Position numbers and translations under genes: made by a program. 46,352 nt of DNA from Minisyncoccota bacterium (GTDB lineage Bacteria; Patescibacteriota; Minisyncoccia; Phycocordibacterales; UBA9973). Below, piece by piece: positions 1,888-36,646 of the stretch. How positions within the stretch are numbered: the stretch's first letter is position 1; each line of letters opens with the position of its first letter. The DNA is taken from contig JAOAUE010000027.1 in NCBI GenBank assembly GCA_030157745.1, positions 1,314 through 47,665 on the forward strand, given 5' to 3'. Under the pieces are notes generated by a model that worked only from the letters and a program-made list of their open reading frames with translations, searched no databases and was not told the DNA's origin.

Positions 1888-3636
1888 ATGACATCCTCTG
1901 AGATCAGAAAACGGTTTTTGGACTTTTTTGCCAAGCGTGGACATGCAATTTTGCCTAGTGCGCCGTTAGTACCCAAAAACGATCCGTCAGTACTTTTCAA
2001 CACTGCTGGTATGCAACCGCTTGTGCCTTTTCTTATGGGCGAAAAGCATCCATTAGGAAATCGTCTAGCGAGTTGTCAAAAGTGTGTTCGCACTGTAGAT
2101 ATTGAAGAAGTAGGGAATCATAAAAATTTAAGTTTTTTTGAAATGCTTGGCAACTGGTCACTCGGCTCATATTTTAAAGAAGAATCCATTGGTTGGAGTT
2201 ATGAGTTCCTAACTTCAAAAGAAGAAGGGCTCGGTTTAGATCCAAAGCGCCTATATGTCACTGTTTTTGAAGGCGACGAAGACGCACCAAGAGATATGGA
2301 GGCGGTAGAGATATGGAAAAAATTTATTCCGGAAAATCGCATATATTTCCTCCCGAAGAAAAACAACTGGTGGAGCCCAGGAGACAATGGCCCGTGCGGA
2401 CCTGATACTGAAATGTTTTATGATGTAACCGAGAAAGGTCTTGGGGACTTAACTCATGAAGAATATGTGGTAGCTGATGACAAGGGTGAGGTTGTTGAGA
2501 TTTGGAACAACGTCTTCATGGAGTACGAAAAGAAAGACGGGAAAGTCATCGGCAAACTCCAGCAAAAAAATGTAGACACTGGTAGCGGGCTGGAGCGAGT
2601 TACGATGCTTATGCAAGGTAAAAGAAATGTCTATGAATCAGATGTTTTTGCTCCTGCTATGGAGTTTATTGAACTTAATACAAAAGGCATCCCTGATGAG
2701 CGCAGTGCACGTATTATTGCTGACCACACTCGTTCTGCAACTATGCTAATAGCTGATGGAGTAGTACCTTCGAACAAAGATCAAGGTTATGTACTTCGAA
2801 GATTTATTCGTAGGGCAGTAGTTCAAGCCAAAAACATTGGTTTTTCTTATGAACTTCTTGGAGTATTACAAAGTGGCTTTATGGCAAAGTACGAAGACGT
2901 ATATCCAGAACTCAAAGAAAATGTAGACGCACAAAAAGAAATATTTAATAAAGAAGTAGAAAAGTTCATCAAAACTCTTGAGGCAGGGCTGAAAGAGTTT
3001 GAAAAAGGAACTGATCCTTTTATACTAGCTACTACTTATGGTTTTCCTATTGAAGTCACCGAAGAAATAGCCAAAGAAAAAGGTATAACTATAGACAGAG
3101 CCGATTTTGATCAAAAAATGAAAGCTCACCAAGAAGCATCTCGCGCTGGAGCAGAGCAAAAGTTCAAAGGAGGTCTTGCAAACACCAGCGAACAAACAAC
3201 CCGTCTTCACACAGCTCACCATTTACTATTAAAGGCTCTACAAGAAGTTGTCAGTCCTGACATTCACCAAAAAGGCTCAAATATCACCGAAGAGCGACTG
3301 CGTATAGACTTTAACTTTGATAGAAAACTGACAGAAGAAGAAAAGAGTGCAGTAGAGAACAAAGTAAACGAGTGGATAAGGCAAGATTTGAAGGTAGTAA
3401 AAAGAGAAATGCCACGAGAAGATGCAGAGAAGCTCGGCGCGGAAATGGAGTTTGGAGTCAAATATCCAGAGGTTGTTTCTGTTTACTTTATTGAAGATGT
3501 AAATGGAAATACTGTATCAAAAGAATTTTGTGGTGGTCCGCATGTAGAGCGCATAGGGACATTGGGAACTTTCAAAATCCAAAAAGAAGAGGCTTCTTCA
3601 GCTGGAGTGCGTCGTATCAAAGCCATTCTAAGTTAA
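1888..3636 (+). CDS. alaS: alanine--tRNA ligase, short form (582 aa)
   Basis: The N-terminus IRKRFLDFFAKRGHAILPSAPLVPKNDPSVLFNTAGMQP and the FFEMLGNWS, GPCGPDTE and DTGSGLER motifs mark the class II AlaRS core. The editing-site metal motifs HTAHHLL and CGGPHV are also present. Confidence 0.95.
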   Translation: MTSSEIRKRFLDFFAKRGHAILPSAPLVPKNDPSVLFNTAGMQPLVPFLMGEKHPLGNRLASCQKCVRTVDIEEVGNHKNLSFFEMLGNWSLGSYFKEESIGWSYEFLTSKEEGLGLDPKRLYVTVFEGDEDAPRDMEAVEIWKKFIPENRIYFLPKKNNWWSPGDNGPCGPDTEMFYDVTEKGLGDLTHEEYVVADDKGEVVEIWNNVFMEYEKKDGKVIGKLQQKNVDTGSGLERVTMLMQGKRNVYESDVFAPAMEFIELNTKGIPDERSARIIADHTRSATMLIADGVVPSNKDQGYVLRRFIRRAVVQAKNIGFSYELLGVLQSGFMAKYEDVYPELKENVDAQKEIFNKEVEKFIKTLEAGLKEFEKGTDPFILATTYGFPIEVTEEIAKEKGITIDRADFDQKMKAHQEASRAGAEQKFKGGLANTSEQTTRLHTAHHLLLKALQEVVSPDIHQKGSNITEERLRIDFNFDRKLTEEEKSAVENKVNEWIRQDLKVVKREMPREDAEKLGAEMEFGVKYPEVVSVYFIEDVNGNTVSKEFCGGPHVERIGTLGTFKIQKEEASSAGVRRIKAILS

Positions 3637-3638
3637 AC

Positions 3639-3718
3639 AAAAAATAACATTGATTTTATTAGCGAGAACTGTTTGAGCAAAGCGAGTTTTCGAGATAGTA
3701 AAATCAATGTTATTTTTT
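3639..3718. repeat. long palindromic element / bidirectional terminator with conserved core (copy 1)
   Basis: Perfect 20-nt arms lie at 3639-3658 and 3699-3718. The core is GAGAACTGTTTGAG (3664-3677) and CGAGTTTTCGAGA (3683-3695). The same two core blocks recur at 36319-36362. Confidence 0.8.
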
Positions 3719-3752
3719 ATTCTCAAAGCAACTGATGCTATAATATAAACAC

Positions 3753-4925
3753 ATGTCTAAACAAAACGGCAAAATTATTCCTGTTGCGATTTTTGATATT
3801 AGTTCTAGCTCTGTCGCTGGGTCACATACACTAATAAACAAGACCGGAGAAGGCAAATCAAATGTTTCTTTTTTAGCAAGTTCTAGAAAATTTTTAGAAC
3901 CAAAGGAAGATATAGATATAGCTCGCTTTGTCTCTGACAACCTGGCATCCCTAGAGTCTGTCATAGCAACCTTACAAAAGGCTGATAACCACAAACCAAA
4001 AGAAGTCTTTGTCTTACTTAGCTCTCCTTGGTTCGTTTCGCAAACTAGAAATATAGTCTACACCAAGACTAGTCCCTTTGTTTGTACCCAAAAACTGATA
4101 GATTCTTTGATCCAAAAAGAAATAGACTTCGTTGTTGAGCATGATATGGAGAGATTTGGCTCTATGGGTACCGACGGCAAAATAATAGAGAAACAAATAT
4201 CAAAAATAACTCTAAACGGCTACGCTACCAACAATCCCTTTAACAAAAAAACAACAAGTCTAGAAATTTCTATACTAGTTACTGTTTCTCCGAACAAAAT
4301 AGTAAAAGAATTTATTTCAAAAATACAAAAAGCTTACGGTAGACCAAAGATAACTTTTGCGACTAGTCCATATGCTACGTTTATAGCAACCAGAGACTTC
4401 AATAATGCTCCAGAGGAGCTTTTGATAATAGACGCAGGAGAAGAAACTACAGACATAGCATTTATAAAAAACCATATTTTCCTTTATCAGCAGTCTTTCC
4501 CAATTGGATTTTATGAGCTTTATAGGAAAATATCAGCCTCAAATCACGGGACATTACTTGAAACTAGGGCATTAGTAGAAACATTCAGACTAGGCAAACT
4601 CTCTGCACAAATAACAAGCAACTTACAAAAAATAACCGAAGACTTCGGTGAAGCTTGGGGCAATAAACTCAAAGAGAGTTTGCAAATCTCTCAAAATTTT
4701 AAAATACCTGAGAATATTTATATTATTTCTATGGCGCCATTTACTTCTTTTTTCTTATCTTATGTAAAAAATAGTGAATTCATAAAAAATTTCATTTCAG
4801 GAACAAAACCAAATACCTCTGAAGTAGAGTCAACACTCTTCACTAGCCATATAAGCTCTATAGACCCTGAAAATATCGACAACACACTGACAGTCGGAGC
4901 ATTGTTTGCATCTAGAGTCCTATAA
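3753..4925 (+). CDS. actin-like ATPase fold protein (PilM/FtsA-like)
   Basis: VAIFDISSSSVAGS resembles the phosphate-1 motif of PilM/FtsA. LIIDAGEETTDIAFI resembles the DxGxxxTD phosphate-2 motif. The family call is tentative. Confidence 0.5.
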   Translation: MSKQNGKIIPVAIFDISSSSVAGSHTLINKTGEGKSNVSFLASSRKFLEPKEDIDIARFVSDNLASLESVIATLQKADNHKPKEVFVLLSSPWFVSQTRNIVYTKTSPFVCTQKLIDSLIQKEIDFVVEHDMERFGSMGTDGKIIEKQISKITLNGYATNNPFNKKTTSLEISILVTVSPNKIVKEFISKIQKAYGRPKITFATSPYATFIATRDFNNAPEELLIIDAGEETTDIAFIKNHIFLYQQSFPIGFYELYRKISASNHGTLLETRALVETFRLGKLSAQITSNLQKITEDFGEAWGNKLKESLQISQNFKIPENIYIISMAPFTSFFLSYVKNSEFIKNFISGTKPNTSEVESTLFTSHISSIDPENIDNTLTVGALFASRVL

Positions 4926-9814: not shown

Positions 9815-9834
9815 TAATTTTAAATACTGCTTAT

Positions 9835-10239
9835 ATGGAAAAATCAAAGAAAACATACATAGAAACTATCGGCCGACGCAAAACTTCAACTGCGCGTGTT
9901 CGTATGACTCCTAGCACAAAGCAAAGCTACGAGATCAACGACAAAGATTTGGCTACTTATTTCGCAACTACAGAACTTCAAAAGATAGTTACAGATGCTT
10001 TTACTACACTAGATAGCAAGTCTCACTACAGTATCACTGTTAAAGTCTCTGGTGGTGGTATCCACTCTCAAGCTGAAGCTATCCGCCATGGTATCTCTCG
10101 TGGACTTGTAAAAGAAGAAGAGGGCACAAAAACAACTCTCAAAAAAGCTGGCTTCCTCAAGCGTGATCCTCGCATGAAAGAACGACGCAAATTCGGTCTC
10201 AAAAAGGCGCGTAAGGCTCCACAATGGTCTAAGCGTTAA
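9835..10239 (+). CDS. rpsI: 30S ribosomal protein S9
   Basis: GRRKTSTARV near the N-terminus, GGGIHSQAEAIRHGISRGL, and C-terminal RKAPQWSKR. Confidence 0.95.
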   Translation: MEKSKKTYIETIGRRKTSTARVRMTPSTKQSYEINDKDLATYFATTELQKIVTDAFTTLDSKSHYSITVKVSGGGIHSQAEAIRHGISRGLVKEEEGTKTTLKKAGFLKRDPRMKERRKFGLKKARKAPQWSKR

Positions 10240-26953: not shown

Positions 26954-27850
26954 TTATTGTGCTGTGTTCAAGCCAAGCTCTTGTATATATGGGGCAAGAA
27001 CATCGCTTATATGTCTTTGGTTCAAAGTCATTTGATATGGGTTTTCTGCGAGCTTTTTCCATGGCGCAAGCTCTCCAAATGGATACTGCCCAAAGACTAT
27101 AACCGGAGTGCCCTTTTGTATTATTTCATTTCCGTCACCCGACAATGTCCATTGATCTGCCCAATCATAAAACCACATTGCGTCTTTTGCAGAAAATCGT
27201 ATACATGAGTGACTAGCAGGATAGCCAGGAAGCTCATATTCGTGGATACCTATACCGCCAAGATTATCGATATTGAAGTTCCATTTGAGTATCCATTCAT
27301 CATTTGATGTGCTGATGACCTCTTTGCCTTTCCAGTTGGTATGAAAAAGGCCGTTTGGAGTTGGGGTAGACTTTTTGCCAGTGCTGATACCACCAAAGCG
27401 CACCAAAGTGCCATACTCATAAGCTCCAAATTCTTGAGAACCTTGCGCAACAAATAAAATCTTTGGAATATCTATAAGCTCTGGAATACTCCTAGGAAAA
27501 GAAGACAAAGCAAAAAGGTCGTCATATCGAGTTGGATAAACTATCACCATACCTTTTTGAAAATGCTTTTCATCTATCCTGTTGAGTGAAAGCACAGCCT
27601 CAATATTTTCAAAACCCACCACTTCAGTTACCTCCTTGCCTGGCTGATCGGAAGAGGTCACTATTTTTAAGTAAGTAAGTGGTAAGATTTCTGGCTCTTG
27701 TGGTTTCGGTACCTCTGGTGTTGGGACAACCTCTCTAGGAGACTTTGGTGAAAAATCAAAGCTTTTCTGAGAAAAGACATAGCCAGCAACGCCTAAAGCC
27801 ACCAAAATAGCCGGGACAAGTATCGAGAGAAGATTATTTTTACGGGTCAT
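26954..27850 (-). CDS. L,D-transpeptidase (YkuD domain)
   Basis: GIGIHEYELPGYPASHSCIRFSAKDAMWFYDW contains the H...SxGC(I/V)R-type catalytic motif. There is an N-terminal TM anchor. Confidence 0.8.
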   Translation of the reverse strand: MTRKNNLLSILVPAILVALGVAGYVFSQKSFDFSPKSPREVVPTPEVPKPQEPEILPLTYLKIVTSSDQPGKEVTEVVGFENIEAVLSLNRIDEKHFQKGMVIVYPTRYDDLFALSSFPRSIPELIDIPKILFVAQGSQEFGAYEYGTLVRFGGISTGKKSTPTPNGLFHTNWKGKEVISTSNDEWILKWNFNIDNLGGIGIHEYELPGYPASHSCIRFSAKDAMWFYDWADQWTLSGDGNEIIQKGTPVIVFGQYPFGELAPWKKLAENPYQMTLNQRHISDVLAPYIQELGLNTAQ

Positions 27851-35132: not shown

Positions 35133-35215
35133 GCGAGGGCGCATAATATCATTTGCGCAGTGAGGACTCTGCGCAGGCATCCGCAACAAGCAAATGATAT
35201 TGTGCGTCCGAGCGC
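35133..35215. repeat. long imperfect palindrome between prfA and tRNA-Ile
   Basis: The arms GCGAGGGCGCATAATATCATTTGC and GCAAATGATATTGTGCGTCCGAGCGC enclose a ~33-nt core that has its own GCGCAG/CTGCGC hairpin. Confidence 0.65.
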
Positions 35216-35218
35216 CTT

Positions 35219-36169: not shown

Positions 36170-36290
36170 CACGAACAAAATAGGAATTATATATTCCCTT
36201 GATTATCTAATAATTTGATTGGTTTCGTTTCTTTAGTCATAGTTTATATCTTATTTTGTACGTGATCCATGTATAATCTATTTTAGCAAA

Positions 36291-36388
36291 AAAGCCCGAA
36301 TAGGGCATTTTATGTTTTGAGAACTGTTTGAGGTCCGCCAGCTGGCGGACGAGTTTTCGAGAAATATAAAATGTCCTACGAGGGCTTT
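36291..36388. repeat. long palindromic element / terminator with conserved core (copy 2)
   Basis: The outer arms are AAAGCCC..GGGCATTTTAT / ATAAAATGTCC..GGGCTTT. The core is GAGAACTGTTTGAG (36319-36332), then a perfect 18-nt palindrome GTCCGCCAGCTGGCGGAC, then GAGTTTTCGAGA (36351-36362). Confidence 0.8.
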
Positions 36389-36394
36389 CTATAG

Positions 36395-36646
36395 CTACTT
36401 CTTTGCAGAAGCAAGACGCTTTTTGAATCTATCTACTCGTCCAGCAGTGTCGATAACTTTTTCGTTACCTGTGAAGAATGGGTGTGAAGCACTAGATATT
36501 TCAACTCTAAAAAGTGGGTATTCTTTACCTTTTATAGTGATAGTTTCAGTAGTATTGATAGTAGAACCAATGATAAATTGGGTATCTGACGAGTTGTCGT
36601 GGAAAACAACTTCTCTAAAGTTTTTTGGGTGAGTGTCCTTTTTCAT
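36395..36646 (-). CDS. rpmE: 50S ribosomal protein L31 (type B, no CxxC)
   Basis: [15 protein letters not shown] ... [12 protein letters not shown] ... GRVDRFKKR. Confidence 0.9.

Follow-up and report, generated by a model that had tools for sequence, protein, structure and literature searches.

A hairpin repeat family with a conserved tip at gene boundaries of Patescibacteria, tentatively read as a REP-like DNA element

Two long hairpins in the intergenic spacers of a Minisyncoccota genome carry the same short sequence blocks within arms that are otherwise different, and the locus raises the question of what kind of element this core represents and whether it is read as DNA or as RNA. Both hairpins lie in a stretch of 46,352 nt, the whole of which was analysed and is called the window here. 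Copy 1 has perfect arms of 20 nt (3639-3658 and 3699-3718) around GAGAACTGTTTGAG-CAAAG-CGAGTTTTCGAGA at 3664-3695. Identical blocks of 14 and 13 nt recur in copy 2 at 36319-36332 and 36350-36362, within a hairpin that extends over 36291-36388; the outer arms of copy 2 are imperfect and unlike those of copy 1, and its insert is an 18-nt perfect palindrome, GTCCGCCAGCTGGCGGAC, the final C of which is common to the second block. The arms, the repeated blocks and the palindromic insert had been described in this way by the sequence-only reading of the window, and the description is exact; the gapped block pattern matched twice in the window and in none of 100 shuffles. That reading had also looked to a genome-wide pattern search. 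When the genome that contains the window (G000; 507 kb, 94% complete) was searched, the exact gapped pattern returned only the two window copies, and a relaxed pattern, CTGTTTGAG-N3-30-CGAGTT, added two further diverged copies, one adjoining fmt (C2:4257-4316) and one after gyrA (C18:15989-16058), as well as copies in genomes of the same genus.

Copy 1 lies downstream of alaS on the same strand, and its 5' outer arm (AAAAAATAACATTGATTTTA, 3639-3658) begins 2 nt past the stop codon of that gene (3634-3636). The named relatives of the AlaRS bear the labels Saccharibacteria, Minisyncoccia or Paceibacterota, which places the host among the Patescibacteria (CPR). Based on the sequence and the family pattern, the 5' side of the lower junction is TTAGC (3659-3663), in which C3663 pairs with G3694, and a tandem G.A is formed by G3664-A3665 opposite G3692-A3693. 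The stretch GAGAAC (3664-3669) provides the GA of this lower tandem G.A, the GAA of a 3-bp helix and a C, and TGTTTGAG (3670-3677) provides a U-rich bulge (UGUYY) and the 5' half of an upper tandem G.A (YGAG). The mini-hairpin insert CAAAG (3678-3682) reads GCAAAGC together with its flanking G and C, a variant of GCGNAGC, and CGAGTT-TTC-GAGA (3683-3695) supplies the 3' half of the upper G.A, the UU, the 3' strand of the helix and the 3' half of the lower G.A. The 3' outer arm, TAAAATCAATGTTATTTTTT, follows at 3699-3718, all of these parts being read on the plus strand. The extended -10 promoter of the next gene, TGCTATAAT (3736-3744, plus strand), lies 18 nt past the hairpin, and extended -10 motifs of this type recur in orthologous spacers. 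The TGCTATAAT motif ends 9 nt before the ATG at 3753, no Shine-Dalgarno sequence is present, and the layout (window 3736-3755) is repeated in orthologous spacers, which suggests from the sequence that the mRNAs downstream of such promoters are leaderless.

The whole hairpin of copy 2 (36291-36388, read on the plus strand) separates the rpmE stop codon (36395-36397, minus strand) from the promoter of prfA, and it runs antisense to rpmE (L31) as well as to prfA (RF1). Within its conserved core (36319-36362, plus strand), the mini-hairpin position is occupied by the nested GC-rich palindrome (36333-36350), and the extended -10 motif of prfA, TGCTAAAAT (36280-36288, minus strand), overlaps the T-run 3' of the hairpin on the minus strand. 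This GC-rich mini-palindrome, (T)CCGCCAGCTGGCGG(A), recurs in the same genome at C19:9704-9725, C8:3328-3363 and C6:1863-1901, and is also found at the mini-hairpin position in copies of relatives (L095, L132). The window holds a third element of the same superfamily at 35133-35216 (plus strand), a tip-swapped relative termed type 2, with the tip GAGGAC-TCTGCGCAGGCA-TCCGCAA, arms of 17 bp that include a single T.G wobble, and CGAG/CGAG closing its base; this element occupies the space between the stop codon of prfA and the -35 box of the tRNA-Ile promoter. Each of the three window copies thus has a stop codon on one side and the next promoter on the other.

The sequence-only reading had predicted that further copies would exist, and this was borne out. 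A covariance model built from a seed of 23 copies gave 67 matches in 25 of the 51 genomes of the genus, with one to six per genome. When 150 other genomes of the order were searched, weak matches were found in only five; they were judged to be true copies and have the common CUGUUUGAG-hairpin-CGAGUU tip on very large hairpins with perfect outer stems of 29-37 bp. The pattern scan of 400 genomes of the phylum gave about as many matches as a reversed control; about half had a clear hairpin insert, and the hairpin-insert matches cluster in approximately 25 of the 400 genomes, belonging to many families. Four to eight copies per genome were observed in G586, G428, G479, G489 and G507. The eight copies of G586 are alike over approximately 150 nt, arms included, with unique flanks, and the seven copies of G428 over approximately 200 nt, with a core (GAGAAC-UGUCUGAG-CACAG-CGAGUU-UUCGAAA) close to that of the window. 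An inner element of approximately 95 nt is common to the four copies of G489, and their outer stems of 6-14 bp are site-specific and perfectly paired, and in G062 the outermost stem extends over the stop codon of prfA and an inverted copy of it further downstream. At three loci of G586 (L253, L257, L252), the main element is followed or partly replaced by a second repeat, CCCCCGAAGTCCTGAGCAAAGCGAAGGCGTAGGGGGA, whose tip style, YGAG-CAAAG-CGAAG, is that of the main G586 element. The two window hairpins and the element at 35133-35216 are therefore copies of a non-coding hairpin repeat family that is patchily distributed across Patescibacteria.

Among the copies of G000 and its genus, no two are recent duplicates, and loci are common to several species. 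The element was found at alaS, rpmE-prfA, prfA-rsmI, prfB, fmt, gyrA, recG, mreC-tgt, uvrB-uvrA, xerC, cysS and ruvC-ruvB (neighbour proteins mostly named by eye), and every located copy of the family is intergenic. Approximately half of the distinct genus loci adjoin genes of DNA repair, recombination or topology, or tgt, a count that is inflated by orthology; these are uvrB/uvrA (L009, L018, L047), gyrA (L012, L014, L015), recG (L006), ruvC/ruvB (L048), xerC (L026) and tgt (L008, L023, L030). Other families with a conserved core atop site-specific long hairpins were noticed in G000 (C23:4499-4581 and 4594-4681; C11:16328-16436; C20:726-834 and 9817-9894; C7:15761-15865 and 27514-27609), as were palindromes of the ACTTTATAA type at C14:6018, C15:4930, C16:5695 and C3:26157.

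Alignment of the copies resolved a common architecture in elements of 80-200 nt, present in one to eight copies per genome. The base is often a CGAG/CGAG tandem G.A. The outer stem of 15-27 bp is site-specific in its distal part and subfamily-specific in the proximal 6-8 bp, and it leads to a lower loop in which a 5' GA stands opposite a 3' GA, GCA or GGA. The 3-bp helix that follows covaries (GAA/UUC, GGA/UCC, GCA/UGC). A pairing of GAGAAC with GUUUUC over 6 bp had been proposed for the core and is only partly right: this covariation supports a 3-bp helix that adjoins a tandem G.A loop, not a fixed helix of 6 bp. An asymmetric loop comes next, with a C and a U-rich bulge (usually UGUYY, 4-7 nt) on one side and UU on the other; the bulge and the YGAG beyond it are invariant in the 23 seed copies, and the variants UGUCU and UGUUC occur elsewhere. 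The upper tandem G.A (YGAG versus CGAG) is followed by a closing G-C pair and a mini-hairpin of very variable length. In the seed alignment, 83% of cells were paired versus 58% in shuffles, and both sides change in 15 of 17 pairs; at the pair adjoining the closing G-C, all of C-G, G-C, U-A, A-U and U.G occur. The lower module (GAGGAC...UCCGCAGG) also carries alternative tips, the commonest being the type-2 tip UCUGCG(Y)AGGCA. The suggestion of a recognised element agrees with this: the core is selected, and probably recognised, within unrelated stems.

When the inserts of 5 nt were compared (n = 43), 25 gave GCGNAGC and 10 gave GCANAGC, and the N of GCGNAGC was A in 12, T in 8, G in 3 and C in 2. 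As DNA, GCGNAGC is an extraordinarily stable mini-hairpin with a Tm of approximately 76 °C, and it is far less stable as RNA, the related r(GCGAAAGC) melting at 39 °C (PMC13037366). GCGNAGC mini-hairpins serve as single-strand initiation signals (phage G4, ssiA) and as the hairpin promoters of the phage N4 virion RNA polymerase (PMC13037366). The family resembles these signals in that its commonest tip is exactly GCGNAGC, with all four N, within a larger single-strand fold for which a DNA fold is predicted; it differs in that those signals act in the replication or transcription of phage or plasmid single-stranded DNA, and the conserved module that surrounds the mini-hairpin here is unrelated to them.

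At fixed sites, the element turns over. In the alaS 3' spacer, G000 and G011 have a type-1 tip; G021, G020 and G050, together with three metagenome contigs, have a type-2 element whose arms are unrelated; and most other genomes of the genus and metagenome contigs have no such hairpin. Between rpmE and prfA, the mini-hairpin is swapped between orthologues with identical arms, the GC-rich palindrome of G000 being replaced by GGCAAAACC, GGGCAAAACC or GCAAAGC (G011, G020, G046). Within the genus, one and the same gene boundary has thus seen gain, loss and tip exchange of the element. A metagenome search for a near-identical strain with an empty site returned nothing closer than 89% protein identity. 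The idea that recombination between the arms often flips the tip was ruled out by the stable orientation among orthologues, which is described below.

The two strands of the element are not equivalent. On the strand that reads GAGRAC (the purine-rich strand, or GA strand), the outer stems of the pattern-found copies have 22 G.U versus 4 A.C. Over all model matches, the ratio for 1x1 mismatches was 61 to 9, a figure biased by the reward that the covariance model gives to G.U, from which only the pattern-found count is free; purine-purine mismatches exceeded pyrimidine-pyrimidine ones by 34 to 18 over the same matches. The predicted stability of the GA strand was higher than that of its complement in 58 of 71 copies, and in the three window copies this held with DNA and RNA parameters alike. 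The fold of one strand, the GA strand, is therefore kept. Its orientation relative to the neighbouring genes is mixed, with about ten sense and about ten antisense loci in the genus, and is also mixed in the young family of G586. Among orthologues, the orientation is stable: three genomes have the element antisense at the gyrA spacer and at least seven have it so at rpmE-prfA, and in three others it is sense. Given that the GA strand serves the neighbouring genes as template as often as it is their coding strand, we infer that selection acts on the fold of this strand as single-stranded DNA. A rule that ties the orientation to the replication strand was rejected, since copies 1 and 2 are both on the plus strand yet on opposite skew strands, and since one spacer of G055 holds two copies in opposite orientations. 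GC and AT skew change sign at approximately 29.5 kb in the window, where the gene strand goes from plus to minus; this switch may mark a replication terminus or reflect mere coding-strand bias.

The reading that we tentatively favour is that of a REP-like but distinct, non-autonomous DNA hairpin element, whose conserved tip would be a single-stranded-DNA recognition structure for an enzyme postulated here, the window copies serving also as gene-boundary hairpins. Against it stand the tandem G.A, the G.U pairs and the covarying stems, which are equally typical of structured RNA, and the T-runs found 3' on the GA strand in all eight copies of G586, which resemble an RNA terminator.

The main rival is accordingly a structured RNA module, in which a kink-turn-like, tandem-G.A protein-binding motif in 3' UTR or terminator hairpins, or in a small RNA, would bind a protein, or would protect or end transcripts. 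The strong covariation of the stems, the phylum-wide conservation of the bulge and G.A motifs, the excess of G.U far above A.C and the G586 T-runs after the GA strand all agree with it, as do RNA-like substitutions, C45 to U giving G.U and G46 to A giving A.A in the tandem G.A. The layout CUGUUUGAG-stem-CGAG is reminiscent of hammerhead domain 2 and of box C/D kink-turns, and the order of helix, bulge, tandem G.A and helix is that of a kink-turn. A kink-turn, however, has a 3-nt bulge and usually a partner of the L7Ae family, whereas the bulge here is of 4-7 nt opposite 2 nt (UU), which is not canonical, and neither L7Ae (PF01248) nor Nop (PF01798, E-values up to 1) gave a match in G000. The hammerhead has a three-way junction and CUGANGA/GAAA cores, whereas two helices are present here and A6 and A14 are replaced (UGUYYGA, GAG); the Rfam hammerhead models gave no match even at E-values up to 10. 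The TIGR-Tas systems of CPR bacteria comprise box C/D-like guide RNAs in tandem arrays beside a tas (Nop) gene, with CCA and UG as 'boxes' (PMC12045711). Identity with TIGR-Tas arrays was rejected, because the elements are dispersed singly and not in tandem arrays, their layout and motifs differ, and G000 has neither Nop nor L7Ae.

Transcription of the neighbourhood also argues against the RNA module. Approximately one copy in two runs antisense to the genes on both sides, an orientation that is kept among species (rpmE-prfA in G000, G011, G020 and G046; the gyrA 3' spacer in three genomes). Few extended -10 promoters (TGnTAnnnT) are directed into the element, none of them from a constant short distance, and the lower stability of GCGNAGC as RNA weighs on the same side. 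With Rfam 15 at the gathering threshold, the window yielded tRNA-Ile only; local E-value scans at both loci gave weak long-hairpin matches, mostly to microRNA precursors and far below gathering scores, and the distant relatives of the element matched no family. The literature searches returned no description of such repeats in Patescibacteria. As to the small structured RNA that had been suggested, an independent small-RNA gene was rejected on the lack of an inward extended -10 at a fixed close distance and on an orientation that is about 50:50 and stable across species; the wider idea of an RNA module is considered somewhat unlikely.

It is quite improbable that the hairpins are ordinary gene-boundary terminators or insulators of shared ancestry, in which the core would be kept only as a nucleator of a stable hairpin and would not be specifically recognised. 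The position of all three window copies suits such a role, as do the A- and T-tracts at the base of copy 1, with its T-rich 3' arm, the T6 that follows copy 2 on the transcribed minus strand, and the nature of GCGNAGC and tandem G.A as stabilising motifs. Nevertheless, a T-run (at least four T) follows the hairpin, on a rough count, in no more than 4-5 of the 71 copies, so that the label 'terminator-like', given to the hairpins in the sequence-only reading, fits the two window copies only; the terminator scan left copies 1 and 2 uncalled, their loop being too long for its criteria. Any stable loop would suffice for a terminator, whereas the sequence of the asymmetric 9+6-nt loop is conserved from genus to phylum, and the fold of the GA strand is the better one even at sites where transcription yields the other strand.

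A site at which a regulator or nucleoid protein binds duplex or cruciform DNA, placed upstream of promoters and activating or insulating independently of orientation, is very improbable: copies do lie 17-45 nt upstream of extended -10 promoters, which often point away from either edge of the element in either orientation, and the -35 box of the tRNA-Ile promoter in the window abuts the type-2 element, but many copies have no promoter motif nearby, a duplex site would need neither long site-specific inverted arms nor an excess of G.U over A.C on one strand, and the complementary hairpin of a cruciform, which would contain C.U and A.C mismatches, has a lower predicted stability.

The element behaves as repeat DNA: in some genomes it has multiplied as near-identical copies of 150-200 nt, and its sites, which it occupies in either orientation, are flanked by a stop codon and the promoter that follows. 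Under the favoured reading of a non-autonomous DNA hairpin element, and by analogy with RAYTs, which read REPs, the conserved tip would be the recognition structure for a hairpin-reading enzyme of mobilisation or processing, and the window copies would also separate alaS, rpmE, prfA and tRNA-Ile from the next transcription unit. The family resembles the REP/BIME/REPIN-RAYT systems: these are small, non-coding, intergenic palindromes at gene ends, in either orientation and sometimes as inverted pairs (here in the mreC-tgt spacer of G055), which form imperfect hairpins, for which the fold of one DNA strand matters and whose sequences are family-specific. The family also differs from them. Here the tip is conserved and the stem is site-variable; the elements are of 80-200 nt versus 20-40 nt for REPs, with one to eight copies per genome versus tens to hundreds; and the flanking tag is CGAG on both arms, in G.A pairs, versus a 5' GTAG.

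Rickettsia palindromic elements (RPEs) and MITE-like repeats (Correia, ERIC, RUP) are long hairpins of approximately 100-150 nt that are non-autonomous, patchy and located at gene boundaries, and the family resembles them in each of these features. MITEs, however, keep terminal inverted repeats and make target duplications, whereas in this family the ends are least conserved and the centre is conserved; the G586 element ends with GTCGCC...GCGAC, and its unique flanks have no evident direct duplication. RPEs are known for in-frame insertion in genes, whereas all located copies of this family are intergenic.

No mover or reader was found, which, together with the low copy number and the lack of recent duplicates in G000, counts against the DNA-element reading. 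The Y1 transposase of the RAYT family (PF01797) had no match in G000. Y1_Tnp was present in all five multi-copy genomes tested, but its base rate in the phylum is 189 of 401 genomes (47%), and genomes with the motif have about the same rate; at the loci of the eight Y1 genes of these five genomes, no element adjoined. A link to a Y1 transposase or RAYT is therefore unsupported. Of the earlier suggestion of a REP- or MITE-like mobile hairpin, the repeat behaviour stands, but a REP or MITE in the strict sense does not, given the conserved centre, the absence of Y1 from G000 and the lack of any copy beside a Y1 gene in the five genomes. Many of the Y1_Tnp matches in the phylum are frames of 200-260 aa that cover only the last two thirds of the profile, and these possibly represent a lineage-specific HUH family.

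A bolder version of the DNA-element reading, which we consider unlikely, is that the tip is a self-folding single-stranded-DNA module of a new class of mobile element, which would land at gene boundaries, take its arms from local sequence and be read by a hairpin-specific enzyme other than a RAYT. The folded tip might, for example, prime copying of the adjacent flank, which would also account for the surplus of G.T mispairs on one of the strands.

Tiny and streamlined as their genomes are, Patescibacteria across the phylum retain at gene boundaries a folded, strand-specific element of 80-200 nt, and its tip, in which tandem G.A are stacked with a GCGNAGC mini-hairpin, is conserved beyond many proteins. 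The covariance model and the pattern make these elements annotatable, and a 32-nt oligonucleotide is a tractable probe for pull-down. If the element is mobile DNA, its conserved centre and local arms would imply a route unlike the logic of REP/RAYT and of MITEs; if it is an RNA or DNA signal, it would point to a hairpin-reading factor in a lineage with almost no known regulatory biology.
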